Shown here piece after piece: positions 1 to 12,761 of a DNA stretch of 12,761 nt. The translations under genes and the position numbers were made by a program. The notes beneath the pieces were generated by a model. That model had not been told where the DNA came from. It ran no database searches and saw only the letters and a list, made by a program, of their open reading frames with translations. The number at the start of each line of letters is the position of its first letter. Position 1 is the first letter of the stretch. This DNA is from Methanobacteriota archaeon (GTDB taxonomy: Archaea; Halobacteriota; Methanosarcinia; Methanosarcinales; Methanogasteraceae), in NCBI GenBank assembly GCA_034658575.1, contig JAYEFK010000240.1, positions 1 through 12,761 on the forward strand, read 5' to 3'.

Positions 1-30
1 GGCGGGGGGCGGTGAAGACCCGACGCACCG
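1..30 (+). repeat. GC-rich array repeat, copy 0 (only the 3' end is present; cut by the window edge)
   Basis: ggcggggggcggtgaagacccgacgcacc aligns with the 3' part of copies 1 and 3 (ggcggcgggggcggcgaagatgcgagagcgcc). Confidence 0.6.
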
Positions 31-34
31 AAAA

Positions 35-42
35 TTTTATAA
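35..42 (+). promoter_or_regulatory. Putative archaeal TATA box (ttttataa) with a purine-rich BRE-like cgaaaa upstream
   Basis: It matches TTTAWATA and lies 23 nt upstream of the ATG at 65, consistent with a leaderless or short-leader transcript. Confidence 0.4.
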
Positions 43-64
43 CGAGACTGATGTAATCAAATCT

Positions 65-214
65 ATGGAATCGATGCCACAAAAGAGGATGGTTTTAACG
101 ATAGACCCAAATGAATTGAAGGAAGGGGTATGCAAAATATACCCCTCGGAAGATGAAAAATTTGCGGTGTGTTTGGAAAACGAAAAGATTAAAATCTTCC
201 CGATCGAAGAGTGA
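65..214 (+). CDS. Hypothetical small protein (49 aa), first gene of a two-gene cassette
   Basis: My own translation gives MESMPQKRMVLTIDPNELKEGVCKIYPSEDEKFAVCLENEKIKIFPIEE. It is below the ORF-track length cut-off. Its TGA at 212-214 overlaps the GTG at 211 of the next ORF (GTGA coupling). Confidence 0.35.
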   Translation: MESMPQKRMVLTIDPNELKEGVCKIYPSEDEKFAVCLENEKIKIFPIEE

Positions 215-405
215 GAGAAGGTATTTGGATGGATGTCCTTCCCATAAATCTATCGAGAAAGACTAGCGAGATCGTAATAGATCCAACCGTTTTTAAAGAT
301 GGAGATTGCAAAGAGATTCGCGTCTGGAGTTGGAAACGGTTTAAAACAGTAAAATATGTAGTGTGTTATAAAGATAGTGAATTTGTAATATCTAAATTCG
401 ATTGA
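211..405 (+). CDS. Hypothetical small protein (64 aa from GTG 211; alternative ATG at 229)
   Basis: An ORF-track entry that is AT-rich like the other cassettes. Its start overlaps the upstream stop by 4 nt. I recognise no family. Confidence 0.4.
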   Translation: MREGIWMDVLPINLSRKTSEIVIDPTVFKDGDCKEIRVWSWKRFKTVKYVVCYKDSEFVISKFD

Positions 406-548
406 ACATGAATATCTGATGAGTTGTGCTGTCATTGTTGCGTGGTTGAGTCGGGGGTCGCGAGCGGATTAGTGGGTGAACCGGTTAGAGCGTCCGAATA
501 TGGCGTTTCGTTTGCTGGTGAGAAAGTTGTTTTAATTCTGAAGACGCA

Positions 549-764
549 CCACTCGCTCCTTCATTCTTCTACAGATCATCCCCGGCGGCGCATCCGCCAG
601 CGACACCGTGGCGCAGATGCCCCCGCCGCCCGGCTCGCCCGCGACTGCGCACACACGGCACGAATGGGCGGCGGGGGCGGCGAAGATGCGAGAGCGCCCG
701 AGCCGCAAACCATATACCATCACAAACACAAAGAATCCACGAACACTATGCCAGAGGTGGAGAA
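549..764 (+). repeat. GC-rich array repeat, copy 1 (5' arm diverged or truncated; 3' leader module shared with copy 3)
   Basis: The core ctcgctcc...ccccggcggcgcatccgcc...cgccgcccggctcgcc...cacacacggcacgaatgggcgg aligns with copies 2-4. Segment 689-764 aligns with 2502-2587. Confidence 0.85.
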
Positions 765-965
765 ATGCACGAAGAACTAAAATGGTTTGCATCGTTCCCA
801 GATGAACTAAAGAAATTCAGAGGAAAACATATCGCGATAATCGGAACAGAAGTTGTTGCCAGTGGTGATAACGCAATAGCCATCTTGAAGGATGCTAAAA
901 AGAAATTTCCTACTAAAAACCCGGTTCTGGCGTTTGTGCCAAAGGAAGATATGCTGATACTATAG
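765..965 (+). CDS. DUF5678-like small protein (antitoxin-like partner of archaeal retropepsin-like proteases)
   Basis: MHEELKWFASFPDELKKFRGKHIAIIGTEVVASGDNAIAILKDAKKKF... matches my memory of the DUF5678 pattern (W...ELxKKYxGKWVAIxxxxVIASGD...A). An SD aggtggag lies at 755-762. Confidence 0.6.
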   Translation: MHEELKWFASFPDELKKFRGKHIAIIGTEVVASGDNAIAILKDAKKKFPTKNPVLAFVPKEDMLIL

Positions 966-973
966 GTGATCTG

Positions 974-1369
974 ATGGAATTTCCATATCAGAAAGAGCAA
1001 TCAAGACTATTTGGCAATATTTGCAGACCAGTTGCAGAATTTGAAGTGGAGACTGAACTCGGTTGGACGTCGGTACTGGCATATATCGATTCAGGTGCGG
1101 ATATCACACTGCTTCCGATGTCCTTTATAACAGCACTGGATATTCATATTGAAGAAGAAGATATCAATGATATAAGGGGAATTGGAGATGCTAAACTACC
1201 GATAATCGTAAAAAGAGTCAGAATGCGACTCGCTGGAAAAACGTTCGATACTGAAGTTGCAATTGCATTAATGGAGGGTGTTCCATTCCTTTTGGGCAGA
1301 GAGGGCGTCTTTGACCAATTTGAGATATGTTTCAGGAGAAATCGAACGATCCGTTTTGAAGATGCATAA
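974..1369 (+). CDS. Retropepsin-like (clan AA) aspartic protease, small archaeal type
   Basis: It has the catalytic motif AYIDSGADITLLP (hydrophobic-D-S-G-A), a flap-like GIGDA and a C-terminal FLLGREGVF (the LLGRD-like motif). An SD aggtgat lies at 964-970. Confidence 0.75.
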   Translation: MEFPYQKEQSRLFGNICRPVAEFEVETELGWTSVLAYIDSGADITLLPMSFITALDIHIEEEDINDIRGIGDAKLPIIVKRVRMRLAGKTFDTEVAIALMEGVPFLLGREGVFDQFEICFRRNRTIRFEDA

Positions 1370-1422
1370 CGTTTAACGATGGGATTGCGCATCGTCACCA
1401 TTTAATCATCCAGATAGCACAA

Positions 1423-1600
1423 CCCCACAGCCACCCGCCCCCTCTCGCTTCCACGACTCCCCCGGCGGCGCAGCCACCAGCGACACCACGCAGATGCCCC
1501 CGCCGCCCGGCTCGCCTGCGACGAAGCACGCACAGCACGAATAGGCGGTAGGGGGCGGCAAGGATGGAAAGTTTAAATATGCAAGATGGTATAGGTGGAG
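1423..1600 (+). repeat. GC-rich array repeat, copy 2
   Basis: ccccacagccacccgccccctctcgcttccacgactcccccggcggcgca...cgccgcccggctcgcctgcgacgaagcacgcacagcacgaataggcgg aligns with copies 3 and 4 along its full length. The 3' flank is cassette-specific. Confidence 0.85.
1572..1579 (+). promoter_or_regulatory. Putative TATA box (tttaaata) preceded by ggaaag
   Basis: A consensus-like TTTAWATA lies 27 nt upstream of the ATG at 1607. Confidence 0.4.
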
Positions 1601-1606
1601 CCAACA

Positions 1607-1951
1607 ATGCAAGAAGTAGTCACATTTGGGGAAATCTTGGATATGCGCCATGAGAAGTTCGTATTTGAGAGCAAGAAAAATATGGGTGATATTGTATACG
1701 CGCTTGTTCATGAGATAGTTGAATTGAGAAAGGAACTTGAAGAAATTAAGGGCAATAAGTCGGTGGATGTTGTAGAAAGGATCGTAGTGTTAAACGATGT
1801 TTCTTATTCTGTGGCTAAAAGTATGATCGAAGATTATTTGAAAAGCCACGAAGACGTTTATATGTATGAGCTATCTAATGACTTAAGATTGGACTTAAAG
1901 ATTGTCCATGAAATCGTTGAGGAACTAATTAAAGAAGATAAGGTAGAATAG
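1607..1951 (+). CDS. Hypothetical protein with a probable C-terminal winged-helix DNA-binding domain
   Basis: The ORF track starts at GTG 1595. I prefer ATG 1607, which lies 6 nt after the SD aggtggag (1593-1600). The C-terminal VYMYELSNDLRLDLKIVHEIVEELIKEDKV resembles wHTH recognition regions. The family was not identified. Confidence 0.5.
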   Translation: MQEVVTFGEILDMRHEKFVFESKKNMGDIVYALVHEIVELRKELEEIKGNKSVDVVERIVVLNDVSYSVAKSMIEDYLKSHEDVYMYELSNDLRLDLKIVHEIVEELIKEDKVE

Positions 1952-1960
1952 GCGGTTTTC

Positions 1961-2146
1961 ATGCCGATATGCAGAGACAAAGGAGATGCCATAGAAGGAG
2001 AGGTGATAACCTGTCAGGCACGGAAATATGAGGCGATGGTGATAAAAGGAAGTGGGGCGCATAGAGCCACAAGGATTAAATTAAGCAGTAGAGGTAGGAC
2101 TTCTGCATATTGTGTGATAGATAAACCGCTGAAGTGGATAAAATAG
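1961..2146 (+). CDS. Hypothetical small basic protein (61 aa); coding status uncertain
   Basis: An ORF-track entry bounded on both sides by the 9-nt motif aataggcgg, whose TAG supplies the stop of this ORF and of the preceding one. I recognise no family. Confidence 0.3.
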   Translation: MPICRDKGDAIEGEVITCQARKYEAMVIKGSGAHRATRIKLSSRGRTSAYCVIDKPLKWIK

Positions 2147-2348
2147 GCGGATCGTGTCTTAATATGGGGAGCTGCGATGCGATCAGAACCAGCAGCTCAT
2201 AGCTTATGGCGTGACAAGAGACCACCATGATTCAGAACAATATCTGCAATTGCAGTATTGTCAGCAGTGGCTTATTTTGAGAGGGGGACTGAAATAAAGC
2301 ACGTGTGATCGATTCCATATACACATCCCACAAGGCGGTCTACCCATG

Positions 2349-2587
2349 CCCACAGCCGCCTGCCGCCTGCGCACCCGGCAGGCCGTCCCCACCTCGTTCT
2401 CGCTTCCACGACTCTCCCGGCGGCGCATCCGTCCGCGGCGCCCGGCTTGCCTGCAACGAAGCACACACAGCACGAATAGGCGGCTGGGAGTGGCGAAGAT
2501 GCGAGAGCGCCCGAGCCGCAAACCATATACCATATACCATCACAAGCACAAGCAATCCACAAACATAATACCAGAATAGGTGGAGAA
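2349..2587 (+). repeat. GC-rich array repeat, copy 3 (full 5' arm, shortened central hairpin, long 3' leader module)
   Basis: It aligns with copies 2 and 4 over cccacagccgcc...cacgaataggcgg, and with copy 1 over gcgaagatgcgagagcgcccgagccgcaaaccatataccat...ggtggagaaatg. Confidence 0.85.
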
Positions 2588-2625
2588 ATGCGACAAAGAA
2601 TTGCTGGAGTGATCTGGTGGCGACA

Positions 2626-2939
2626 ATGAGTTTTCGTTCGATATCTGGCAACACGGTTGCGCTTACCCGATCTGGAATGGATCATATCGCGAAACGGCAT
2701 CCAGAACTCAAGAACTTCGATTTGGCGAATAGGATCGGTATCGCCGTCGAATCTCCTCTGATTATGTCGTGCAGGGGAAATTTGGCAGACATATCGCTAT
2801 GAGGTCCGAGCCGATGATGTTTGGCAAGGCTAAATACATGGTTGTGATCTACGAAGATGGTGGGGAAGTGATAACAGCATTTATTACTTCAAAGATCGGA
2901 AAGATCATCAGGAGGGATGTACTATGGAAGCGATGTTAA
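2626..2939 (+). pseudogene. Frameshifted toxin-like gene (the family usually annotated DUF4258 and partnered with DUF2283)
   Basis: Frame 1 (2626-2802) gives MSFRSISGNTVALTRSGMDHIAKRHPELKNFD...AVESP. The frame starting at 2733 continues with ...SDYVVQGKFGRHIAMRSEPMMFGKAKYMVVIYEDGGEVITAFITSKIGKIIRRDVLWKRC and stops at 2937-2939. The frame switch lies within 2733-2762, next to a tctcctct tract. Confidence 0.6.
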
Positions 2940-3121
2940 AGGTGAAAACGGTGGAAGCTCTGGATATAGATTACGATTCCGGCAGAGACGTGCTTTACAT
3001 AAGTTTTGGATCACCAACTGCTGCTGATGATGCAGAACTCCTGGATAATGATGTCATCGTGCGGTACAGGCACCACCGGATGGTAGGGATAACGGTTCCA
3101 GATTTTTCGCGAAGAAGTTAA
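2924..3121 (+). CDS. DUF2283-family small protein (antitoxin-like)
   Basis: LDIDYDSGRDVLYISFGSP...DNDVIVRYRHHRMVGITVPDF matches the DUF2283 pattern (YD.E.D.LYI......V.......G.IVGIEI). An SD aggaggg lies at 2909-2915. The gene overlaps the upstream toxin frame by 16 nt. Confidence 0.7.
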   Translation: MEAMLKVKTVEALDIDYDSGRDVLYISFGSPTAADDAELLDNDVIVRYRHHRMVGITVPDFSRRS

Positions 3122-3168
3122 GCGAACAGAGACGTCTCGATCATAGATCGCTATGGGTGGCACCTCGT

Positions 3169-3330
3169 CCACAGCCGCCCGCCGCCTGCACACACGCCTC
3201 TGCCCGCCCCCGCTCATCTTTCGCGACCCCCGGCGGCGCATCCGCCTGGGACGTCACAACGCAGAGGCTCCCGCCGCCCGGCTTGCCTGCGACGAAGCAC
3301 ACACAGCACGAATTGGCGGCGAAGGGCGCC
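3169..3330 (+). repeat. GC-rich array repeat, copy 4 (terminal copy, abutting host DNA)
   Basis: ccacagccgcccgccgcctgcac...gacccccggcggcgcatccgcc...ccgccgcccggcttgcctgcgacgaagcacacacagcacgaattggcggcgaag aligns with copies 2 and 3. Homology is lost after about 3326. Confidence 0.85.
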
Positions 3331-3429
3331 ACGATGTGTGCAGAGGTCAAGGCACCCCCCGTACTGGTACTGTGTTATCGGCACCTCGCGGTAGCAGCGA
3401 TACCACAACCTTGATATGCACATCTCCCG

Positions 3430-4596
3430 ATGTCGTCAGACAGAGGCGTTTATTTGACTGAATTTGACATACACGTTGGCTACACACACATCAAAAATCC
3501 GATCGCGCTTGCACCGATGGCAGGCATCACAAACATCGACTTTGTCAGGGATCATGCAATGAGCGCAGGGCTTGCCGTGATCGGCGGATATAATCTGGAC
3601 GATGCGACAAACGAGGCAGCAAGGAGCATTAACGAGCGCGGGCGTGCTGAATTTGTGACACCCGAGCCTACCAAACATCTGCGAAGCGAACTCGATCGCC
3701 TGGAAGGGATGGGTGACTCCCCCACAATCGCACTCAACGTCAGAAGCGCTGAAATTATGCCGCTAATGGAGACGGCACATCTCGCAAAGGAGTATGGCGC
3801 AATCCTTGAGATCGATTGCCATTGCCGACAGCCGGAGATGACAGATATCGGGGTGGGCGAACCTCTTCTTCACGATTTGCAGAAACTTGGATCGATCATC
3901 TCGAAGATCAAGGAAACCGGGGTTGTTCTCTCTGTAAAGACCAGATCCGGAATCGTTGACGACCGCGAACTTGCGGTAGCGATCGAGGAGGCAGGCGCGG
4001 ATATGATCCACATCGATGCCATGGAACCCGGATATGGCGCTGACTATAATGCGATCAAGGCGGTAAGAAATGCCACCGATCTCTTTATGATATGCAACAA
4101 TTCCGTCACGGATTTCAGAAGCGCAAAGGATATGTTCGGATACGGTGCAGACATGGTCTCGCTTGCGCGAGCTGTGCCCAAGATTCCAGGAGTGATAGAT
4201 GACCTTGTCCGCTCTGTCACCACCTTTCAGAAGCAGACCGGCTGGTACAATGCACCAAAGCACATCTGCAGCGGAGGAGACGATCGGGCACTCGCGTTCT
4301 GCTGCCTGCCTGTCAAGCGGTGTGCGCTCATGCGGGTGCTCCGCAGGTATGGGATGACGCCGCAGGAGTTTGCAGACTTAAAGGTCGAACTCTCACGCGG
4401 AACACCGCTCGAACTTGGAGATAACACATGCTTCGGGACGCTGATATGGTGCTGCAAACTCACAAAACCGTGCTTCATGCGTGACGCTGTGCTCGATCAG
4501 ATCGGCATTTCAGGAGCCCAGTATATGAAACTCAAGAAACAGCTCTCTGAAGGTATTCTTAATCGCCTCAGAAACTCCCAATCTCAGCTGCTGTGA
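3430..4596 (+). CDS. Methanogenesis marker domain 9-type protein: N-terminal TIM-barrel-like region plus a C-terminal 8-Cys domain
   Basis: The C-terminus contains FCCLPVKRC and WCCKLTKPC plus four more Cys, matching my recollection of the [WFY]CCxxKPC x2, eight-invariant-Cys marker-9 domain. The N-terminal APMAGITN resembles Dus/NifR3-like barrels. Confidence 0.6.
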   Translation: MSSDRGVYLTEFDIHVGYTHIKNPIALAPMAGITNIDFVRDHAMSAGLAVIGGYNLDDATNEAARSINERGRAEFVTPEPTKHLRSELDRLEGMGDSPTIALNVRSAEIMPLMETAHLAKEYGAILEIDCHCRQPEMTDIGVGEPLLHDLQKLGSIISKIKETGVVLSVKTRSGIVDDRELAVAIEEAGADMIHIDAMEPGYGADYNAIKAVRNATDLFMICNNSVTDFRSAKDMFGYGADMVSLARAVPKIPGVIDDLVRSVTTFQKQTGWYNAPKHICSGGDDRALAFCCLPVKRCALMRVLRRYGMTPQEFADLKVELSRGTPLELGDNTCFGTLIWCCKLTKPCFMRDAVLDQIGISGAQYMKLKKQLSEGILNRLRNSQSQLL

Positions 4597-5027
4597 ACAA
4601 TCATCACCGGAATGGTGGACGTGTGAACGACCCTGGTGGCAACGCTTCCGACAAGAATTCGATCAAGCCCTGTTTTGCCAAGCGTGCCCATCACGATAAG
4701 GTCGATCTCGTTTTCCTGTGCATAGAGAACGATCTCGCTCGCAGGATGCCCTTCCAGAATGCTGCACTCGACAGATACGCCGGATTCCGTGCCCTGATCT
4801 TCCACGTGCTTCAGAGCCTCATTGCCTTCTATGCGTATCAGTTCATACATACTCTCCCATGCAGCGTCCATCGGCAGTGTTGCAAACGCACCTGCATCAA
4901 GGACGTATACAGCGTGAACATCTGCCCCTGCGATGCGGGCAAGTTCGATGCCGTAGTCAACCGCCTTTTTGGTGTTCTCTGAGCCGTCGGTCGCGATCAG
5001 GATATTTTTGTATAATTCACTCTCCAT
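4584..5027 (-). CDS. Universal stress protein (UspA family)
   Basis: ILIATDGSENTKKAVDYGIELA...HAVYVLD...LIVMGTLGKTGLDRILVGSVATRVVHTSTIPVMIV is a classic UspA pattern including G-x2-G-x9-G(S/T). Its 3' end overlaps the convergent upstream gene by 13 nt. Confidence 0.85.
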   Translation of the reverse strand: MESELYKNILIATDGSENTKKAVDYGIELARIAGADVHAVYVLDAGAFATLPMDAAWESMYELIRIEGNEALKHVEDQGTESGVSVECSILEGHPASEIVLYAQENEIDLIVMGTLGKTGLDRILVGSVATRVVHTSTIPVMIVHSS

Positions 5028-5181
5028 AAGATCATCTCATCTACCGGATTGCTGTGGAATGGGATAAGGTTTTGTGTTGAGGGGTGGAGGCGCATTTGAT
5101 GATCAGGGGGTGGGGAAGTCGGGCTACAAGCGTTTAAGGAGTTGTGGAGCATAGTTTAGCGCGGATATTTCCGGAGCAAAC

Positions 5182-6405
5182 ATGGATTATGATGTCGTTG
5201 TGGTCGGCGCCGGACCTGCGGGCTGTCTGGCAGCGAAGTACGCCGCAAAAAACGGAGCGAAAACACTAATCATCGAGGAACACGCATCCATCGGGTCGCC
5301 TGTGCAGTGTGCAGGTCTGCTGAGTACGAGCGCGATCCGGGAGTGTGAAGTCGTTCCAGACAAGGGGTTTCACCCGATCACAGGCGCGTTTGTGTGTGCG
5401 CCCGACGGGAGCAGGATCCGCATATCGGGAGGCGAGATCAAGGCGTACGTGGTCGACCGCCGGATATTTGACCGCACGCTCGCAGAGAATGCGATCCGTT
5501 CAGGCGCAGATATTCTCATGCGCACGCGGGCGGTCGGTATCGGTACCGGCACGGGAACTCGTGAACACCGGAGGATTCTCCACGTCGCAATCGAAGGCGA
5601 GCCGGACGTGATCGAGGCTGATGTGGTCATCGGGGCGGACGGGGTACAGAGCCATATCGCACGGTGGGCTGGTCTCGATACGCCGGACATGGTTCTCTCT
5701 GGCGCACAGGTCAGCACGGTCTACGACTTCGATGATCCCGAATTTGTCGAGATATTCCCTGGATCGTGCGCTCCCGGATTCTTTGCATGGGCGATCCCGT
5801 ACCACGGTAGCGCACGCATCGGGCTTGCAGTCCGACCGGGGTCGGGGTCGGCATTGGGCACGGGATCGGAAGTGAGGCATGAGTCTGCGTATGCTCATCT
5901 GAAACGGCTGATCGCAGAGCACCCGGTCGTATCCGGAAAGTGCGCTCCCGGAATCGCAGGCATCGCGCTTGGTGGGATCCCGATCAGTGTGCCGCAGCAA
6001 ACGGCAGCCGATGGCGTGCTGATCGTTGGCGATGCCGCGGGGCAGGTCAAGCCGACGTCAGGCGGAGGCGTGTATCCCGGGGCTGTGTGCGCAAAGATCG
6101 CGGGAAAGATAGCAGCAGACGCTGTTCTGGAGGGGGACACATCTGTCAGGCGGCTCTCCGAATACGATAAACTCTGGAGAGCCCGGATCGGGAGGGAACT
6201 TGCGATCGGAAGGAGGATTAACGGATGGATGGCGCGTCTTTCTGATTCCGAGATCAACCGGCTGATTGGGGTGCTGGATGATGATGAGTTGCTGGATCTG
6301 ATCACGAGATACGGGGATATGGATCATCCGTCTGTTGTCGTCCGGAAACTCCTGATGAACAGGAAGAGCATGGGTGCTTTCCTGAAGATGGTTCTGATGA
6401 GGTGA
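5182..6405 (+). CDS. Geranylgeranyl reductase family flavoprotein (archaeal lipid saturation type)
   Basis: It has the N-terminal FAD fold YDVVVVGAGPAGCLAAKYAAKNG, then RRIFDRTLAENA, GADGVQSHIAR and GDAAGQVKPTSGGG, typical of the GGR/ChlP family. An SD ggag lies 5 nt upstream. Confidence 0.85.
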   Translation: MDYDVVVVGAGPAGCLAAKYAAKNGAKTLIIEEHASIGSPVQCAGLLSTSAIRECEVVPDKGFHPITGAFVCAPDGSRIRISGGEIKAYVVDRRIFDRTLAENAIRSGADILMRTRAVGIGTGTGTREHRRILHVAIEGEPDVIEADVVIGADGVQSHIARWAGLDTPDMVLSGAQVSTVYDFDDPEFVEIFPGSCAPGFFAWAIPYHGSARIGLAVRPGSGSALGTGSEVRHESAYAHLKRLIAEHPVVSGKCAPGIAGIALGGIPISVPQQTAADGVLIVGDAAGQVKPTSGGGVYPGAVCAKIAGKIAADAVLEGDTSVRRLSEYDKLWRARIGRELAIGRRINGWMARLSDSEINRLIGVLDDDELLDLITRYGDMDHPSVVVRKLLMNRKSMGAFLKMVLMR

Positions 6406-6446
6406 GGCTGGTCAACTTGCTGCAACTGTTCAAACGGCACAATCGG

Positions 6447-6584
6447 AAAATCCAGTGAAATCACTATATCATTAAATTTTACCGCAGAGTATGCGGAGAA
6501 CTCAGAGGCGTCAGAAAACCAAAGCGATGATTGGAACGGTGTTAAAACTCTGCTCCCTCTGCGGTGATAAATCACTGGATTTTT
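6447..6584. repeat. Nested inverted repeats forming a long imperfect hairpin in the GGR/grpE-like intergenic region
   Basis: The outer pair aaaatccagtga (6447-6458) / tcactggatttt (6572-6583) is 12 bp and perfect. The inner pair accgcagag (6481-6489) / ctctgcggt (6557-6565) is 9 bp and perfect. Confidence 0.7.
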
Positions 6585-6615
6585 AGACAGTACCCTGAAA
6601 ACACACACTCGCAAG

Positions 6616-6625
6616 ATATTTAAAT
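6616..6625 (+). promoter_or_regulatory. Putative TATA box (atatttaaat) for the grpE-like operon
   Basis: The TTTAWATA-like element ends 25 nt upstream of the ATG at 6650, and no SD lies between them, so the transcript is probably leaderless. Confidence 0.5.
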
Positions 6626-6649
6626 CGATCACGCCCACATCATTACAAG

Positions 6650-8170
6650 ATGCGGAACGATGGCAAAGAGAATGATGCTGGAGAGGCTGTGACAAACGAG
6701 ATTATAGTGGTTTCGAAGAAGGAGATGGACGAGAAGGACGAGCTGATCGCATCCCTGAAGGTTAAAGCCGAGAAGATGAAATCCGACTTTGTGCGGTACA
6801 AAGAGCGGACTCAAAACGAAGGCGAAGAGATACGGAGGAAAACATCCGGCGAATTGGTCCGGCAGTTGCTGATCGTCGCTGACACGCTTGAACGTGCTGT
6901 ATATAGCTATGAGAGGGGCGCCGGGGGGGTGGGTGAGTGCGAGGTCGTGGACAGGATGGTAGAGGGGACACGAAGCAGCATGGAGATGACCTACAATCAG
7001 TTGCTGGACGCGTCAGGGGTCGTTCCGATCGCACCATCAGCAGGTGAACGGTTCGATGATGAACTGCACACCGCAATAGAGACCGCGCAAGATCCTCTTC
7101 TTCCGGACAAGACCATTCTGTCCCTTGTCCGGAAAGGATATATGCTGAACAACGAGTTGATCCGACCGGCTGAGGTGATCATCTCCAGAGGCGGCGGCGA
7201 ACCTGTAGAAGGGGGGCAGGACGGAGATACCGACAGAGGGAAGAGAACACGAGAAGCAAAGCCCGGAACGATGATGTCGCGATTTATGCGGCGTTTTGTG
7301 AAGAGGTCGCTTGAAGTGGAGTTGAAGGAGATCGCGGAGAGAGAACAGAAATTGGGGGAGCGCGCACGTGAATTGGTCCGTAACGAGGAAATACTCAGAA
7401 CTTCGGTCAAAGAACTTGACCGGCGAGAGAATGAATTTAAAAAAATAGAAGAAGAATGGACAAAAAGAAAAGGAGAAGCAGAATCGGGAGTTCTTGATTT
7501 AGAACAACGCAGAGAAGTGTTGGAAGCCGAGATCAGGGAATCAAAGAGACAATTATCCGCCATCACTGATGCTCTCAATGAACAGAGGGTTAATGAGGAT
7601 AAGATCGTTGTTGAGAGCATTGCGCTTGGCAGATATAACGTTGAGCTATCAGAAGAGCGGGGAAAGTTGTCAAACCAGATAGATGAGATGGAAGGAAAAA
7701 GGGAAGCGCTTAATTATGAATTGACGGATATGGGCGAACGAAGAGCATGGAACATCGAAGAGCAGTCAAAGATGGAGCAAAAAACAGCAGGGCTCGATGA
7801 AAAGTTGTCCATGTCAGAAAATGAGTTACAAAAAGCAAAAGAACTGGTAAATGCGGAATCAGAGGTGGTTCGCGAGCTTGTGCAGCGCAAAGAATCGCTG
7901 GCAGCAGAGATAGAAGAAACAGAGAGGGTGCTGGAGATCGCTTACGAGAATCTGGATGAGCTGGACGGCAGGAAAGATAAATTGGTCATCGAAAGCATCG
8001 CCCTCCACCGGTACAACGAGGCGCTGTTAGAAGAGCGTGGGGAACTGCTAAACGAGATTGAAGTAGGTGCGGAGGACACGAGTGAAGTAGAAGAAGATGT
8101 CGGAGAAGATATGGATGAAGAAAAAAAGAAGAAATCCGCATTTACAATATCCACACCATTCTGGTGCTGA
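6650..8170 (+). CDS. grpE: GrpE-domain nucleotide exchange factor fused to a long C-terminal coiled coil with an acidic tail
   Basis: The first ~185 aa show the GrpE pattern (KSDFVRYKERTQNE...LLIVADTLERAV...FDDELHTAIE...VRKGYMLNNELIRPAEVIIS). About 310 further aa are E/K/R/L-rich heptad-like sequence containing a duplicated module. Confidence 0.8.
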   Translation: MRNDGKENDAGEAVTNEIIVVSKKEMDEKDELIASLKVKAEKMKSDFVRYKERTQNEGEEIRRKTSGELVRQLLIVADTLERAVYSYERGAGGVGECEVVDRMVEGTRSSMEMTYNQLLDASGVVPIAPSAGERFDDELHTAIETAQDPLLPDKTILSLVRKGYMLNNELIRPAEVIISRGGGEPVEGGQDGDTDRGKRTREAKPGTMMSRFMRRFVKRSLEVELKEIAEREQKLGERARELVRNEEILRTSVKELDRRENEFKKIEEEWTKRKGEAESGVLDLEQRREVLEAEIRESKRQLSAITDALNEQRVNEDKIVVESIALGRYNVELSEERGKLSNQIDEMEGKREALNYELTDMGERRAWNIEEQSKMEQKTAGLDEKLSMSENELQKAKELVNAESEVVRELVQRKESLAAEIEETERVLEIAYENLDELDGRKDKLVIESIALHRYNEALLEERGELLNEIEVGAEDTSEVEEDVGEDMDEEKKKKSAFTISTPFWC

Positions 8171-8186
8171 AAACAGGTGATATAAC

Positions 8187-9962
8187 ATGCAAAGAGAAAT
8201 AATCGGGATCGATTTCGGTACGACGAACTCAGGGATAGCGTTCATCGAATTCGACGAGCCAACAATCATAGAGAACAACGAAAACGAGCGAGTCACTCCG
8301 TCTGTTGTGTATTTTAAGGAGGGGGGAGATGTTGTGGTCGGAAGCGCTGCAAAGCGTAACATCATCGCAAGCCCGGAGCGGACTGTTGCGTCGATCAAGA
8401 GGCAGATGGGCACCGACCACAAGGTGCAGATCGGCAAGGAGCCATATCCGCCAGAGTACGTGGCAGCGCACATCATCAAAAAACTTGTCTCCGATGCTGA
8501 GAAGCGAATCGGGACGCAGATCACGGACGTTATAATAACGGTGCCCGCATATTTCATGGACTCGCAGCGGCAGGCAGTCAAGGACGCTGGCGAGATCGCG
8601 GGCTTGAATGTGCGCGGGATCCTAAACGAGCCGACCGCCGCCGCACTAGCGTTCGGATTTGAGGATGAAGGCGAGGAACGCAGAATCCTTGTCTACGACT
8701 TCGGCGGTGGCACGTTCGATGTTTCAATCCTCTCGATCGGGGACGGGTTCTACGATGTCGATGCAACGAGTGGCGACAACCATCTCGGTGGCGATGACAT
8801 CGATTCACGGATCGAGGAGTTTATCATCGATAAAATAATAGAAAAGCACAAAATAGATCTTAGAAGTAAGAAGAATGGAGATAGATCAGTGCTTCAGTCG
8901 GTCCGGGAAGAAGCCGAGCGTGTGAAGATCGAACTGTCTGATAAAGAGCGCGCGACCATCAATTTACCATACCTGAGTAAGAGCAAGCAGGGCTCGCCAA
9001 TTACGTTTAGCTACACCCTGACAAGGCAGGAATTCAACGAACTCATCTTCGATTTCATCGAACGGACACGAAATCCGATGAAACAAGCGCTCGACGATGC
9101 TGCGCTTCATCCGGACGAGATCGATAATATACTCATGGTTGGCGGGACCACGTACATACCCGCGGTGCAGGAGTTTGTGCGCGACTTCTTTGGCAAGGAA
9201 CCAGAGCACAAGATCGACCCGATCGAGGTGGTCTCGCTCGGAGCGGCGGTTGCTACCCTGAAAGACGGCGTCAAAGAGAATGATGAGAAAGGCAGGGAAA
9301 AAGAGGGGGAAAAAGGAATATCCGGAACGATAAGACGACCTGTTGAGATAAGTGATGTCGCCTCCCGTTCTATCGGAGTTTCAGTTGCAGACGGGACTGT
9401 TTCAAAGATCATTTCAAGGAACACAAAGATTCCGGTCATACAGGCGAAGCCGTTTACGAACGCAGGAGATTATGGGGACGAGGTGATAATCGAGGTGTAC
9501 CAGGGAGAGAGCCTGTATCCGGAGGAGGGTGGCTATCTTGGCGAGTTCTGGATAGATATTGAGCCAAAACCCGTGGGCGAATCGGAGATCGATGTCACTT
9601 TTGCGATCGGGGAGGAGTTTGGCATCTTGCATGTAACTGCAAAGGATCATGACTCTGGCAATGAGCGGACCGTGAAGATGGAGGCTGTAGGCAGGCTCAC
9701 AAAGAGAGAAAAAAACAAGTGGATGCGAAAGATGCTAAATACATACGCAATCGAAGTAACGGTTGAAAATATCGATACACGGGATGTTCTGGACTATTAC
9801 CTCAATCCAAGCGCGACTATCCATGATGTGAGGCGGGACCTTATGAAGAAAGGTATCTTGAGTGAAGGGATGGGCATCTTCTACGATGATGAAGCGCTCG
9901 ATGATGAATCCCTGGTCCGGGACCTGGATATAACAGACGGTTCGACGCTGGAATTAAAATGA
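8187..9962 (+). CDS. dnaK: Non-canonical Hsp70/DnaK-family ATPase with a C-terminal ubiquitin-like domain in place of the helical lid
   Basis: Hsp70 motifs are present: GIDFGTTNS, VPAYFMDSQRQAVKDAGEIAGL, NEPTAAALAFG, DFGGGTFDVS and LMVGGTTYIPAVQEFV. A beta-sandwich SBD-like region follows (RSIGVSV...IPV...EVYQGES...IDVTFAI...ILHVTAKD). The last ~70 aa are ubiquitin-like. An SD aggtga lies 6 nt upstream. Confidence 0.85.
   Translation: MQREIIGIDFGTTNSGIAFIEFDEPTIIENNENERVTPSVVYFKEGGDVVVGSAAKRNIIASPERTVASIKRQMGTDHKVQIGKEPYPPEYVAAHIIKKLVSDAEKRIGTQITDVIITVPAYFMDSQRQAVKDAGEIAGLNVRGILNEPTAAALAFGFEDEGEERRILVYDFGGGTFDVSILSIGDGFYDVDATSGDNHLGGDDIDSRIEEFIIDKIIEKHKIDLRSKKNGDRSVLQSVREEAERVKIELSDKERATINLPYLSKSKQGSPITFSYTLTRQEFNELIFDFIERTRNPMKQALDDAALHPDEIDNILMVGGTTYIPAVQEFVRDFFGKEPEHKIDPIEVVSLGAAVATLKDGVKENDEKGREKEGEKGISGTIRRPVEISDVASRSIGVSVADGTVSKIISRNTKIPVIQAKPFTNAGDYGDEVIIEVYQGESLYPEEGGYLGEFWIDIEPKPVGESEIDVTFAIGEEFGILHVTAKDHDSGNERTVKMEAVGRLTKREKNKWMRKMLNTYAIEVTVENIDTRDVLDYYLNPSATIHDVRRDLMKKGILSEGMGIFYDDEALDDESLVRDLDITDGSTLELK
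9750..9959 (+). other. Ubiquitin-like (beta-grasp) domain at the Hsp70 C-terminus; no terminal Gly-Gly
   Basis: IEVTVENIDTRDVLDYYLNPSATIHDVRRDLMKKGILSEGMGIFYDDEALDDESLVRDLDITDGSTLELK lines up with ubiquitin [70 protein letters not shown] at the hallmark hydrophobic and PS.TI..V positions. Confidence 0.6.
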
Positions 9963-11122
9963 GAAAAGCAAAGAAGTCAAAGGCGAAGAAGGCAGAGATC
10001 TCGGAAGAGGAGCTGGCATATAACGAGTGGATGCAGCTCTTCGCCTGTGACGACCCGTATTGGAAATTCCCGACGCGATATGTGGATTTTTCGCGGCTGA
10101 TAGGGCATGGAAAAAGAATGGAAAGTTTTGAAGAACAGTATTCAGACTGCATCGAGGATCTCCTGTTAGGGGTTCCAACGTATTATTGCGTGCTCTGTGT
10201 CTCGAAGAACGACCCGCCTGATGTGATCAAGGAGGCATACCAGCGAAAGATCGAACACTCCACGTATCCTGATGATGTGATCGAAAGAGCCTGCGAGACG
10301 TTAAGCGACAGGAAAAAGCGTTCCGACTATGAGGAGATTTTGCGCCTTTTTCTGAAGCTCATGCAGGGATACAGTGCGAAAGATAAGCGGGAGCTGGTAG
10401 AAGAGCATGATGAATGGATAGAAGATGAGAAAGATTATGCTACAGTGAATTACCTTATGAAGCATCGCGGTGCATGGCTTAACCTCTATCACCTCGGTGC
10501 ACCTACGTTCTACGAGCTTCTTGGTGTGGATCAGGTGAAATTGAAGCCGGAGGAAGTAGTGCAATGTAAAAATGATGGTGTGGACAAGAGATTGGTAGAA
10601 GACGTCTGTAGTGTACTGAACAATCCGCAGTTGAGGTTCGAATACGATTTTATGCTTTGCAGGGCGGATGAAATTCTGCCGGTGGATTATCTGATGGGCG
10701 GCGAAAGCAGTAAACCAGTGTGGAAGGGGGACGATCGCTCGTATCTGGTGGCGCTTAGATGTTATGAAGGCGTAAACAAGCAGGACCTGATTATGAATGA
10801 ACACATTGATTGGGTAGACTACATCGGCGATAAAACGTTTTACGATGTGTTGACCATCGACAGGGATTCGATTCCAGAGGATAAACGAGAAGCAGAGAGA
10901 TTTATCAGGAATGTGTACAAGGGATTGGAACGGACACCAGAGGTCAATCGTGCGTACAGCGTTTTAAAAAATTTTAGGATGAGGGCTGACTATGATTGGA
11001 TGTTGAAGCAGAATGCAATAATTGATGCGCTGAAGGGGATCGCTATGACTGAGCCGGACGATACGACCTTAGATAAGCTGCTAGATAAGATGCTAGAACT
11101 GTCGGATGCGGACAGGGAGTGA
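9959..11122 (+). CDS. Protein with three tandem degenerate J-like domains (no HPD, no Zn finger, no G/F region)
   Basis: J1 is TYYCVLCVSKNDPPDVIKEAYQRKIEHSTYPDDVIERACETLSDRKKRSDYEEIL. J2 is TFYELLGVDQ...LVEDVCSVLNNPQLRFEYDFML. J3 is TFYDVLTIDRDS...VNRAYSVLKNFRMRADYDWML. The ATG at 9959 overlaps the Hsp70 stop (ATGA). Confidence 0.65.
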   Translation: MRKAKKSKAKKAEISEEELAYNEWMQLFACDDPYWKFPTRYVDFSRLIGHGKRMESFEEQYSDCIEDLLLGVPTYYCVLCVSKNDPPDVIKEAYQRKIEHSTYPDDVIERACETLSDRKKRSDYEEILRLFLKLMQGYSAKDKRELVEEHDEWIEDEKDYATVNYLMKHRGAWLNLYHLGAPTFYELLGVDQVKLKPEEVVQCKNDGVDKRLVEDVCSVLNNPQLRFEYDFMLCRADEILPVDYLMGGESSKPVWKGDDRSYLVALRCYEGVNKQDLIMNEHIDWVDYIGDKTFYDVLTIDRDSIPEDKREAERFIRNVYKGLERTPEVNRAYSVLKNFRMRADYDWMLKQNAIIDALKGIAMTEPDDTTLDKLLDKMLELSDADRE

Positions 11123-11158
11123 CTTACCCGGATTCCCACGTATGGTCCAACGATGTGG

Positions 11159-11164
11159 TTTTTT
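11159..11164 (+). terminator. Oligo-T tract (tttttt), a possible archaeal intrinsic terminator after the chaperone operon
   Basis: A run of six T begins 37 nt after the J-like gene stop. Archaeal RNAP terminates at oligo-T tracts. Confidence 0.4.
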
Positions 11165-11172
11165 GGTAAGGA

Positions 11173-11232
11173 GGTTTAACCTGACTTGGGTTATTTTGTG
11201 ACAGTTCCTTATTTGTGCGGTTACCTGACTTG
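11173..11232 (+). promoter_or_regulatory. Direct repeats upstream of the SNF2-like gene (candidate regulator-binding sites)
   Basis: ggtttaacctgacttg (11173-11188) and ggttacctgacttg (11219-11232) flank ttattttgtg / ttatttgtg. Confidence 0.35.
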
Positions 11233-11309
11233 AGAGCGGTCATCCGGATCAGGTTTATGACGAGAAGATCAGATTACCATCAGTATACCTATCGAAAGGA
11301 GTGCGCATA

Positions 11310-12761
11310 ATGCAGGTCTTACATGCAATCTGGAACGGCGATGAACTGTGCTTATGGGCGGAGGCATCCGCGCTGCCACTGACCGCCCCGCCCCGCCGCG
11401 GAAGACCGCCAAAAAATCCAAAGCCAAGGACTCACCCATTCTCGCTTCCTGCCGATATGCTGAGTGAGATCGTCGAAAGCAACTTCGGGCATACCCCGTC
11501 CGGAATCGGGACGGTGCCGCTTCTCCTCCCCTCGACACAGAGAGGTCCGCTGCCATCGCCGTGGCTTGTCCGGGAGGAGGAGTACGACCACGGGAACGCG
11601 ACCGCGCTTGCCGGCTGGAATGTCGAGACGCTAATATTTGACCCGGGGGGCGCGTTTGATCTCTTACTCGATCTACCAGCCCGCCCACACCGCGGCACCG
11701 CCTTTGGAAGTTCGCTTCGGTTCTGGACCGAAGCAGCCCTATTCTCGCTTGCGCTTATCACGGAAGAACAGTTCATACCCACAATCAGAGAGAATGTCGC
11801 GGTCTGGACCGCGGTGATCGCTGGAGATGACGTGGAACGGATGCACACACTCGCAGATGCGATGCCCGCATACTGCCGGGCACTCATCATCTGGAAAGAT
11901 GGCAGCCCATGCGCACAGGATACACCGCCACGGCTCATGATTCGGAGTTTCATCGACCGAACCGTTGACGTGTTCGTGCGCAGGAGCCTTGAGTCTATAT
12001 CACTGATCCCGCCCCGCCGCGGTCGCCGCCCCAAAATCACCCCGATGCCGGAGCGGTTCCTATCGGCACTGTCAACCTGGGATCCCGCGATCGATGCCCC
12101 GATCGAGGATGTGGCAGCATTCTCGGGAGAGTTAGAGGGGTGGCTCACCGGGCTCCAGCCAGCCATGCCATCTGCGCCATTCCGCACGTGTTTCAGGCTC
12201 GATGCGCCACCGGATCCTGATGAGGAGGAGTATGAAGCGATGGAGGGTGGCGATTATGATGATGAAGATGGTGGTGGGAGTGGTGGTGGCGATGAAACTC
12301 GATACAGGGATCAAGAGCGGGACTGGAATATGTGGAGTCTCGGTTTCTTCCTCCAGGCGAAGGACGATCCGAGTCTGCTGATCCCTGCGGATAAGGTATG
12401 GAAGACACGGTCGGAAACGCTCACGTTTCTCAAACGAAAGTTCAAAAACCCGCAGGAGCAGTTGCTTGCCGACCTTGGCAGAGCTTCTCAGACATACCCC
12501 CCAATCGAGAAGAGTTTGCAGGATGCACGCCCTGTGGGGTTTGATATGAGTGCGGGGCAGGCGTATTCCTTCCTGCGGGAGTTTGCCCCTCTTCTTGAAC
12601 AGAACGGTTTCGGAGTCCTTCTCCCGCCATGGTGGGAGAAACCGGGCGCACGGCTCGGCGTCAAATTAAAGATCAATACACCGTCTCCTGTGCAGGAAGG
12701 TGGCATCGGTTCAGGGCATTTCAGCGTCAAATCGATCATGTCTTACGACTGGACGGTAGCG
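11310..12761 (+). CDS. SNF2-family helicase, N-terminal SNF2-helicase-associated region (partial; continues beyond the window)
   Basis: My own translation is open for 484 codons to the window end and is absent from the ORF track because it has no stop. MQVLHAIWNGDELCLWAEA... is the typical start of prokaryotic SNF2_assoc-domain helicases. An SD aggag lies 7 nt upstream. The helicase motifs are not yet reached. Confidence 0.7.
   Translation, partial: MQVLHAIWNGDELCLWAEASALPLTAPPRRGRPPKNPKPRTHPFSLPADMLSEIVESNFGHTPSGIGTVPLLLPSTQRGPLPSPWLVREEEYDHGNATALAGWNVETLIFDPGGAFDLLLDLPARPHRGTAFGSSLRFWTEAALFSLALITEEQFIPTIRENVAVWTAVIAGDDVERMHTLADAMPAYCRALIIWKDGSPCAQDTPPRLMIRSFIDRTVDVFVRRSLESISLIPPRRGRRPKITPMPERFLSALSTWDPAIDAPIEDVAAFSGELEGWLTGLQPAMPSAPFRTCFRLDAPPDPDEEEYEAMEGGDYDDEDGGGSGGGDETRYRDQERDWNMWSLGFFLQAKDDPSLLIPADKVWKTRSETLTFLKRKFKNPQEQLLADLGRASQTYPPIEKSLQDARPVGFDMSAGQAYSFLREFAPLLEQNGFGVLLPPWWEKPGARLGVKLKINTPSPVQEGGIGSGHFSVKSIMSYDWTVA

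Follow-up and report, generated by a model that had tools for sequence, protein, structure and literature searches.

A predicted ubiquitin-like domain in place of the lid helices in an archaeal Hsp70 family encoded between GrpE-like and J-like partners

Why should an archaeal Hsp70 end in a segment that resembles ubiquitin? The question is raised by a 12,761-nt stretch of DNA, hereafter the window (contig JAYEFK010000240.1, positions 1 to 12,761 of the forward strand, GenBank assembly GCA_034658575.1, Methanobacteriota archaeon), in which the list of open reading frames (ORFs) and Pfam matches place three densely packed genes on the plus strand, encoding a GrpE-type protein, an Hsp70 (8187-9962, 591 aa) and a J-like protein (Table 1). 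An initial annotation, made from the letters of the sequence, had proposed that the Hsp70 terminates in a ubiquitin-like (UBL) domain of the beta-grasp fold. We arrive at the reading, to which we assign a probability of roughly 0.6, that the tail is an integral, non-conjugatable UBL domain on a specialized archaeal Hsp70 paralogue, that it replaces lid helices B-E within a three-gene module, and that it most likely tethers an operon partner.

The region 9690-9962 on the plus strand translates, exactly as the initial annotation had transcribed it, into GRLTKREKNKWMRKMLNTYAIEVTVENIDTRDVLDYYLNPSATIHDVRRDLMKKGILSEGMGIFYDDEALDDESLVRDLDITDGSTLELK followed by a stop codon, corresponding to aa 502-591 of the Hsp70. 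Taken alone, the window tail matched the Pfam ubiquitin family (PF00240) with E = 3e-5 to 6e-5 (23.2-24.1 bits) and the Rad60-SLD family with 23.8-24.4 bits, at or just over the 23.8 cut-off, and no HSP70 match to the tail was found in Pfam. A phmmer search of the single tail against PDB gave the UBL domain of TINCR (E = 3e-5) as the best match resting on one matched domain. A profile built from 43 non-redundant family tails matched mono-ubiquitin chains in PDB at an E of about 4e-8 (36 bits), in an alignment running from ubiquitin L8 to L69, and 39 of these 43 tails individually matched PF00240 at E <= 0.01, the best of them at 8.4e-11. When the tail profile was searched against 1.84 billion representatives, 3174 matches were obtained at E <= 1e-3, mostly polyubiquitin-like multi-repeat proteins; at the level of sequence profiles this search confirms the homology with ubiquitin, and it gave no census of architectures.

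The predicted structure points in the same direction. An AlphaFold2 model based on the alignment of 120 family sequences reached a pLDDT of 78.5 and a pTM of 0.76 (a single-sequence run gave a pLDDT of 39), with block means of 83-92 over the UBL region. DSSP assigned to this model strands at 522-528 and 534-539, a helix at 545-554, strands at 564-566 and 568-569, a turn at 576-578 and a strand at 586-590; the strand at 568-569 comprises only two residues, and the turn is a short helical one. The resulting beta-beta-alpha-beta-beta-3(10)-beta topology has the element order and spacing of ubiquitin. With the full model as query, Foldseek matched nothing but Hsp70s in PDB, and these mask the UBL domain; the fold assignment is based on the predicted topology together with profile homology. 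On these grounds, aa 521-591 are predicted to form a ubiquitin-type beta-grasp. Structure prediction and HMM comparison had been put forward in the initial annotation as the means of telling a beta-grasp from a degenerate lid, and both bear out its proposal, as the model is a beta-grasp and the tail matches ubiquitin families, not HSP70.

A comparable arrangement is found in integral (type-2) UBL domains such as those of TINCR (PDB 7MRJ), Rad23 and parkin, where a PF00240 or Rad60-SLD beta-grasp likewise forms part of a larger protein and carries no Gly-Gly. These proteins are eukaryotic, whereas here the host is a chaperone in Halobacteriota, Thermoplasmatota and Altiarchaeota and the domain stands at the C-terminus and stops at the equivalent of ubiquitin V70, both of which are unusual.

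An alignment to E. coli DnaK defines what the UBL domain has displaced. Residues 502-520 align with DnaK 507-525, which is helix A and the first residues of helix B, and everything past about DnaK residue 525 is replaced: helices B-E and the disordered C-terminal tail are missing, and the UBL domain begins at the point where helix B would go on. Of the alpha-helical lid A-E that counts among the defining features of an Hsp70, only helix A (aa 506-517) is therefore present. The remaining segment is basic (median net charge +5), and its residues R503, L504, K506, K509, W512, M513 and K515 are at least 91% conserved across the family. By this alignment, a ubiquitin-family domain takes the place of lid helices B-E, with the basic helix A as its connector. 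The earlier description, in which about 20 residues follow the beta-sandwich part of the substrate-binding domain (SBD-beta) before a UBL domain in the position of the lid, was thus correct, and the retention of helix A refines it.

The body of the protein is that of an Hsp70. The Pfam HSP70 match covers aa 5-539 (E = 4.9e-147), and Foldseek with the whole model gave 36-44% identity to solved DnaK structures in PDB. In the nucleotide-binding domain (NBD), the residues D8, T11, T12, K70, P143, R151, N170, E171, T173, D194, T199 and D201 (DnaK numbering) are invariant in all 120 sequences, and in SBD-beta the equivalents of the hydrophobic pocket residues F426, V436 and I438 are retained. The core is accordingly predicted from its sequence to be ATPase-competent and to possess an intact peptide-binding beta-sandwich. 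Other positions depart from DnaK. The equivalent of R167 (aa 144, nt 8616-8618), which in DnaK touches the Asp of the His-Pro-Asp (HPD) motif of the J domain, is Gly in the clade of the window and Arg in 77 of the 120 sequences. The interdomain linker (nt 9342-9356) reads (I/V)-E-I-S-D family-wide as compared to VLLLD in DnaK, with Glu in 117 sequences and Ser in all 120 at the positions of DnaK L390 and L392. The arch residue M404 is mostly replaced by Ala, and the lid-latch partner R467 by Ala, Ile or Val.

Since the scores against the NCBIfam DnaK equivalogs (NF001413 / TIGR02350) fall under their cut-offs (520.6 vs 648 and 515 vs 822.55), the window Hsp70 would be a divergent paralogue and not the housekeeping DnaK. 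Canonical DnaK is described as ancestral in Methanosarcinales and Methanomicrobiales by Petitjean et al. 2012 (PMC3564930). With canonical DnaK of E. coli and Geobacillus (PDB 2V7Y/4ANI) the protein has in common a catalytic NBD, SBD-beta, helix A and a GrpE-type factor encoded upstream; it differs by the UBL domain in place of helices B-E and the tail, the (I/V)EIS linker, the equivalog scores and, as set out below, a J partner without HPD. Judged by the offset in numbering, about 23 residues of E. coli DnaK are missing in the N-terminal part of the NBD, and we take this gap to be the indel long recognized in the DnaKs of Gram-positive bacteria and archaea.

The initial annotation had treated the protein as a single fusion, whereas Hsp70-UBL is a widespread, conserved archaeal family. 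A full-length search recovered 119 full-length relatives (566-609 aa, 52-93% identity), which together with the window protein make up the 120 sequences considered here, and every full-length relative carries the tail and is labeled archaeal; a word-indexed search with the tail alone found only five close fragments, and it was the full-length query that revealed the family. About one third of the relatives bear a precomputed PF00240 match. A scan of one genome per GTDB species, made with family-specific peptide patterns that divergent bacterial versions may escape, yielded 66 loci in 65 genomes, with the UBL region covered in all of them and record titles that are all archaeal. The hosts comprise ANME-2c / Methanogaster, ANME-1 / Methanophagales, Ca. 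Ethanoperedens, Ca. Methanoperedens, Methanosarcinaceae and Methanomicrobiales (Methanoregula, Methanospirillum), along with a few Thermoplasmata, Altiarchaeales and one contig binned as Nitrosotalea. A 146-aa fragment labeled 'Proteobacteria bacterium' comes from a 437-nt contig, and a scan of viral contigs found no relatives of Hsp70-UBL. One metagenome-assembled genome of Methanomicrobiales (CAIYHQ01; loci L060 and L067) contains two separate, complete modules of GrpE, Hsp70-UBL and J-like genes.

The window itself shows synteny to contigs from Ca. Methanogaster and from further ANME-2c Methanosarcinales, with which it has the gene order Dus-like, Usp, FAD-dependent reductase, extended GrpE, Hsp70 and J-like in common, and its Hsp70 is about 90% identical to theirs at the protein level. 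The archaeal host claimed in the initial annotation is well supported by this synteny and identity.

We next consider which features of the UBL domain the family has kept. The equivalent of ubiquitin P19 (P541) is invariant in all 120 sequences and N540 is present in 118, so that the L-N-P loop before the UBL helix is essentially invariant; positions N528, L539, N540, D547, L552, L571, D573 and E589 are conserved in at least 93%. On the face that corresponds to the Ile44 patch, the I44 position is Phe (F565) in 101 of 120 sequences, the H68 position is Glu (E589) in 112, residue 591 at the V70 position is Arg or Lys in 93, and the L8-equivalent position is variable. This face therefore appears conserved yet chemically unlike the Ile44 patch of ubiquitin, in a domain that is acidic overall (median net charge -7). 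Between the window and its closer relatives, the ratio of nonsynonymous to synonymous substitution rates (dN/dS) was 0.11-0.31 for the UBL domain as compared to 0.06-0.22 for the NBD and SBD-beta; by this measure the UBL domain is somewhat more relaxed but clearly under purifying selection.

None of the 120 sequences ends in Gly-Gly. The window protein ends in LELK, and the ends seen across the family are LELK, LELR or LEIRQK(DEQEKE). Because Gly-Gly is missing throughout, the tail is taken to be an integral domain and not a conjugatable tag, as the initial annotation had anticipated when it considered a SAMP-type tag unlikely. The archaeal SAMP, Urm1 and ThiS-MoaD proteins also place a beta-grasp fold in archaea, but they are small, free, Gly-Gly-ended proteins activated by an E1-like enzyme, whereas here there is no Gly-Gly and no E1 neighbor, and the sequence affinity is with ubiquitin and not with ThiS/MoaD. 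Judged by its sequence and its neighborhood, the tail would belong to the ubiquitin family as an integral (type-2) UBL domain and lacks the marks of a ubiquitin-like modifier, namely Gly-Gly and linked E1, E2 or JAMM genes. We infer that its role is that of an interaction module built into Hsp70, as opposed to a tag.

With what, then, would such a module interact? When all flanking ORFs with a length of 70 aa or more were clustered across about 69 loci, only three genes proved to be widely common: those for the GrpE-like protein (60 loci), Hsp70-UBL (69 loci) and the J-like protein (66 loci). Their order is GrpE-like, Hsp70-UBL, J-like, abutting or overlapping, in nearly every sufficiently long locus, with the GrpE-like ORF directly upstream of Hsp70-UBL in the 60 loci and the J-like gene directly downstream in the 66. 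In the window, the Hsp70 stop and the J-like start overlap in the tetranucleotide ATGA (9959-9962). A fourth conserved module gene was considered and rejected, the other recurrent clusters being antisense shadow ORFs inside the three genes. Neither the Pfam-annotated neighborhoods nor the ORF clustering of these loci revealed recurrent genes for the proteasome, PAN/Cdc48 (AAA+ unfoldase), E1/E2 or JAMM proteins near the module.

Both partners are unusual versions of co-chaperones. The GrpE-like protein is extended in all 60 loci (180-546 aa), and in the window it continues for about 300-320 aa past the GrpE domain with a coiled-coil look, an internal repeat, an acidic linker, a KKKK motif and a hydrophobic end; a match of aa 220-483 to SMC-like proteins is weak, and the scores against the NCBIfam GrpE equivalogs are all under the cut-offs. 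The last residues in the window are ..SAFTISTPFWC (nt 8132-8167), with KSAFTISTPFWC as the C-terminal peptide. The long, coiled-coil-looking extension is found in the clade of ANME-2c, ANME-1 and Ethanoperedens, where its final part consists of an acidic stretch and a conserved hydrophobic peptide. In ANME-2c this end is S(P/A)FT(V/I)ST(P/V/E)FW plus one variable residue (..KKKSPFTVSTPFW[CFV]); in ANME-1 and relatives it is ..(S/T)(F/L)M.FEMPC, and in some Methanoperedens KEKFDKIPWI. From its sequence, the C-terminal peptide might dock into the Hsp70 cleft or onto the UBL domain.

The N-terminus of the J-like protein is Lys-rich; an invariant DDPYW motif lies at aa 31-35 (nt 10049-10063), and three modules come after it (Table 1). 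In an alignment of 61 sequences, the HPD tripeptide is missing from all three: module 1 has S-x-Y-P and module 3 has (R/K)-T-P at its position, which is deleted in module 2. An HMM of each module aligns to helices I-II and III-IV of the J domain of E. coli DnaJ and skips the KYHPD loop. Since no module contains HPD, we call them J-like domains despite the Pfam DnaJ match, and an Hsp70 partner built only of HPD-less J-like domains is unusual in itself. A non-canonical J-Hsp70 interaction is expected from these sequences, because HPD is absent from the modules, the R167 equivalent is Gly in the clade of the window, and the linker has changed from VLLL to (I/V)EIS.

Altered lids are not confined to the present family, and HscC (YbeW) and HscA are described as DnaK-derived paralogues with shortened lids in a 2026 review (Goloubinoff et al., PMC13580251). 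The likeness, drawn by analogy, would lie in DnaK descent, an altered lid and dedicated co-chaperones; neither HscA nor HscC has a UBL domain, whereas the Hsp70-UBL family is archaeal and keeps GrpE. HscA and HscC have their own dedicated co-chaperones encoded nearby; HPD is kept in their J partners, DjlC and HscB, and neither paralogue is known to use GrpE.

Taken together, the Hsp70 is predicted to run as a self-contained module with its own extended GrpE and a dedicated adaptor of three HPD-less J-like domains. In the manner of DnaK, ATP binding and hydrolysis, together with GrpE-driven exchange, would switch the affinity of the beta-sandwich from low to high and back. Because neither the lid nor the canonical HPD-R167 contact is preserved intact, the UBL domain would provide the interaction surface that has been lost, through the face formed by F565, E589 and Arg/Lys591 and through the invariant L-N-P loop. 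Through this face, a partner encoded in the operon would be held at the C-terminus of Hsp70, be it the J-like adaptor or, by its hydrophobic C-terminal peptide, the extended GrpE, in a manner analogous to the EEVD tail by which eukaryotic Hsp70 recruits co-chaperones; the UBL domain may also cap the substrate cleft. We judge partner tethering the most likely role because no genes co-evolve with Hsp70-UBL except those of its two co-chaperones, and both sides of the canonical J-Hsp70 contact appear to be dismantled. The initial annotation had suggested docking to the proteasome, Cdc48 or the J-like partner. Of these, the J-like partner would agree better with the gene context, whereas the proteasome, PAN and Cdc48 find no support in the gene context of the roughly 69 loci.

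Two observations weigh against this reading. The window tail, taken individually, scores just under the PF00240 gathering threshold (23.2-24.1 vs 25.4 bits). In addition, the Altiarchaeales keep the UBL domain and its conserved residues in loci with no J-like gene nearby and with about 5 kb between Hsp70-UBL and the GrpE-like gene downstream, which weakens the idea that the UBL domain serves to hold the J-like protein. As regards the surroundings of these Altiarchaeales loci (L002/L003 and L034), Hsp70-UBL adjoins split phage-integrase fragments and a PIN-like gene, and the genes before the extended GrpE-like gene include several unknowns, among them PRiA4_ORF3, DUF1186 and GT2-TPR proteins. 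The arrangement may reflect horizontal acquisition.

The main rival to partner tethering is that the UBL domain acts within the molecule as a substitute for the lid: carried on helix A, it would cover the SBD-beta cleft when ADP is bound, move onto the NBD when ATP is bound, and take over from helices B-E the kinetic task of slowing client release, with no external partner. The domain is placed exactly where helix B would continue, helix A and its W512 and M513 are conserved, and the conserved UBL face is kept in the Altiarchaeales, where no J-like gene is adjacent. The pTM of the model and its best superpositions, which are on ATP-state DnaK with a root-mean-square deviation of about 8 A as compared to more than 20 A for several ADP-state entries, suggest a defined arrangement of the domains. 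However, a globular beta-grasp of about 70 residues is shaped unlike a long helix, and the positions that a lid would engage have changed, with small hydrophobic residues at the latch partner R467 and Ala at the arch residue M404. The strong acidity of the UBL domain would also be odd for a cap over hydrophobic clients. We therefore regard lid substitution as a possible but on balance unlikely account of the domain.

A second rival holds that the UBL domain docks the client-loaded Hsp70 on PAN, Cdc48 or the 20S proteasome and so makes it a degradation shuttle, an in-cis analogue of BAG1, BAG6 or the ubiquilins. In eukaryotes, proteasome receptors are common binding partners of integral UBL domains, and Hsp70 is coupled physically to degradation by UBL proteins; the Phe that 101 of 120 sequences have at the I44 position would suit such a role. 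The remaining patch positions, however, are charged (Glu at H68, Arg or Lys at V70) or, at L8, variable, and no gene for the proteasome, PAN, Cdc48, JAMM or E1-like proteins is co-conserved with the module. We know of no description of Rpn10- or Rpn13-type UBL receptors in these archaea. BAG-1, BAG6 and the ubiquilins likewise couple a ubiquitin-family domain to the Hsp70 cycle, and BAG-1 also couples it to a nucleotide exchange factor. There it is the cofactor that carries, in trans, a UBL domain binding the proteasome, whereas here Hsp70 itself carries the domain in cis and no link to degradation was found in the gene context; the likeness is thus an analogy of logic only and no homology of architecture. 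A degradation shuttle seems improbable.

An extended version of this rival, in which the UBL domain is the handle of a hitherto unrecognized archaeal triage machine, built of a lidless Hsp70, an HPD-less triple J-like adaptor and a coiled-coil GrpE scaffold, that captures particular clients and passes them to PAN, Cdc48 or the 20S proteasome, is equally a long shot. If true, prokaryotes would have an in-cis equivalent of the eukaryotic link between Hsp70, BAG1 or ubiquilin and the proteasome, and the PF00240-type domain would be widely a non-covalent recognition module in Halobacteriota, Thermoplasmatota and Altiarchaeota, independent of conjugation.

The remaining two explanations have very little probability. 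A ubiquitin-like modifier precursor, released by a protease and conjugated in the manner of ubiquitin fusions or SAMPs, recalls that eukaryotic ubiquitin is made as fusion proteins, but it is effectively excluded by a C-terminal domain that stops at the V70 equivalent with Gly-Gly in none of 120 sequences, by the absence of linked E1-like or JAMM genes, and by the absence of ThiS/MoaD-type families among the Pfam matches. A tail that is no real UBL domain (a degenerate lid, a chance resemblance, or an assembly or frameshift artifact) could draw on the Pfam HSP70 alignment, which in the full protein reaches aa 539, and on the ubiquitin score just under the gathering threshold, but it is effectively ruled out by a tail that alone has no HSP70 match, by the family profile against ubiquitin, by a model that is a beta-grasp and not helical, and by a tail that is in frame in 120 of 120 homologues and 66 loci and is under purifying selection.

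Table 1. Features of the window, with positions in nucleotides of the 12,761-nt stretch
Feature	Position	Strand	Basis and remarks
GC-rich direct repeat, four copies	580-755, 1457-1565, 2392-2575, 3228-3336		about 110-170 nt, 63-96% identity
Small ORFs between repeats, including DUF5678 and DUF2283 proteins and a weak retropepsin-like match	765-965, 974-1369, 2924-3121		E = 3e-17 for DUF5678
Dus-like (dihydrouridine synthase family) TIM-barrel protein	3430-4596		Pfam Dus, aa 96-266 only, E = 5.5e-14
Possible archaeal TATA-like box, TATTTAAAT	6617-6625	+	about 29 nt upstream of the GrpE-like start codon; read from the sequence
Gene 1, GrpE-type nucleotide exchange factor, 506 aa	6650-8170	+	Pfam GrpE, aa 12-179 (about nt 6683-7186), E = 4.4e-29
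Hsp70 nucleotide-binding domain, aa 1-359	8187-9263	+	Pfam HSP70; all catalytic residues present
Low-complexity insert, aa 360-385 (GVKENDEKGREKEGEKG...), 26 residues, then linker VEISD, aa 386-390	9264-9356	+	pLDDT <50 at 360-390
SBD-beta, aa 391-501	9357-9689	+	eight model strands between aa 396 and 499
Lid remnant, one basic helix, aa 502-520, GRLTKREKNKWMRKMLNTY	9690-9746	+	model helix 506-517
Predicted ubiquitin-family beta-grasp domain, aa 521-591	9747-9959	+	profile matches and model; ends at the ubiquitin V70 equivalent, no LRLRGG
Gene 3, J-like protein, 387 aa	9959-11122	+	Pfam DnaJ, aa 74-125, E = 8.3e-8, weak
J-like modules, aa 68-135, 175-240 and 285-352	10160-10363, 10481-10678, 10811-11014	+	three modules
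SNF2-family helicase, N-terminal part, at least 484 aa	11310-12761	+	Pfam DUF3670 'SNF2 Helicase protein', E = 4.7e-14; ORF runs past the window end

As regards transcription of the module, the candidate TATA-like box upstream of the GrpE-like gene would possibly imply an operon transcript that is leaderless or has a very short leader. A scan of the window for sigma-70 promoters and terminators, which does not cover archaeal promoters, gave a number of sites not above that in shuffled sequence.

Downstream of the module, the SNF2-type ORF carries a coding signal, since substitutions relative to the closest relatives (loci L005 and L006) fall mainly at every third base and gaps come in multiples of 15; the minus-strand ORFs opposite to it are shadows without Pfam hits. 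This neighbor is common only to those closest relatives and is not found in locus L004. Upstream, the Dus-like protein has a Cys-rich C-terminal extension (..CSGGDDRALAFCCLPVKRCAL...CFGTLIWCCKLTKPCF).

Further upstream, the copies of the GC-rich repeat are 0.84-0.94 kb apart, each in a gap between small plus-strand ORFs, and they matched no Rfam family at the gathering threshold and no tRNA. The stretch that carries them is absent from the syntenic Methanogaster loci, except for its last 110 nt. A DUF5678 ORF is directly followed by a weak match to a retropepsin-like aspartyl protease (E = 1e-3, under the gathering score), and the small ORFs also include a DUF2283 protein (E = 4e-8). Judged by their layout, these small ORFs resemble a series of two-gene cassettes; the repeat that flanks the array may act as a promoter or terminator, present in several copies, or may be a small mobile element.

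The sequences of the family are already public, with database labels of 'Hsp70 family protein' or 'DnaK' and, in some cases, automatic ubiquitin-domain matches. In the full-text literature searched, including PMC3564930, PMC12874294, PMC13580251, PMC4327156 and PMC9012536 and covering CoCoNuT, nucleoside triphosphate (NTP)-dependent conflict systems, ANME genomics, archaeal DnaK systems, Hsp70 diversification and archaeal ubiquitin toolkits, the Hsp70-UBL fusion is not described, and both the architecture and the module appear uncharacterized. The Hsp70-like proteins of CoCoNuT and GTPase conflict systems were considered as relatives and rejected, as their context is different. Prokaryotic DnaK derivatives are characterized as largely unexplored 'dark matter' in the 2026 review (Goloubinoff et al., PMC13580251).

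The family would offer a natural and widespread case in which the lid has been swapped, the linker altered and HPD lost, and it would thereby test which parts of the allosteric cycle are dispensable and which are replaceable. The architecture of Hsp70 is among the most conserved in biology, and the function of the lid is a long-studied part of its mechanism. The family would also place a non-covalent PF00240-type domain in methanogens, ANME and other euryarchaeal lineages, without linked conjugation machinery, which bears on the origin of ubiquitin-like recognition modules before or alongside eukaryotic ubiquitin signaling. Its hosts include the main anaerobic methane oxidizers (ANME-1, ANME-2c and ANME-2d), in which proteostasis is essentially unstudied.

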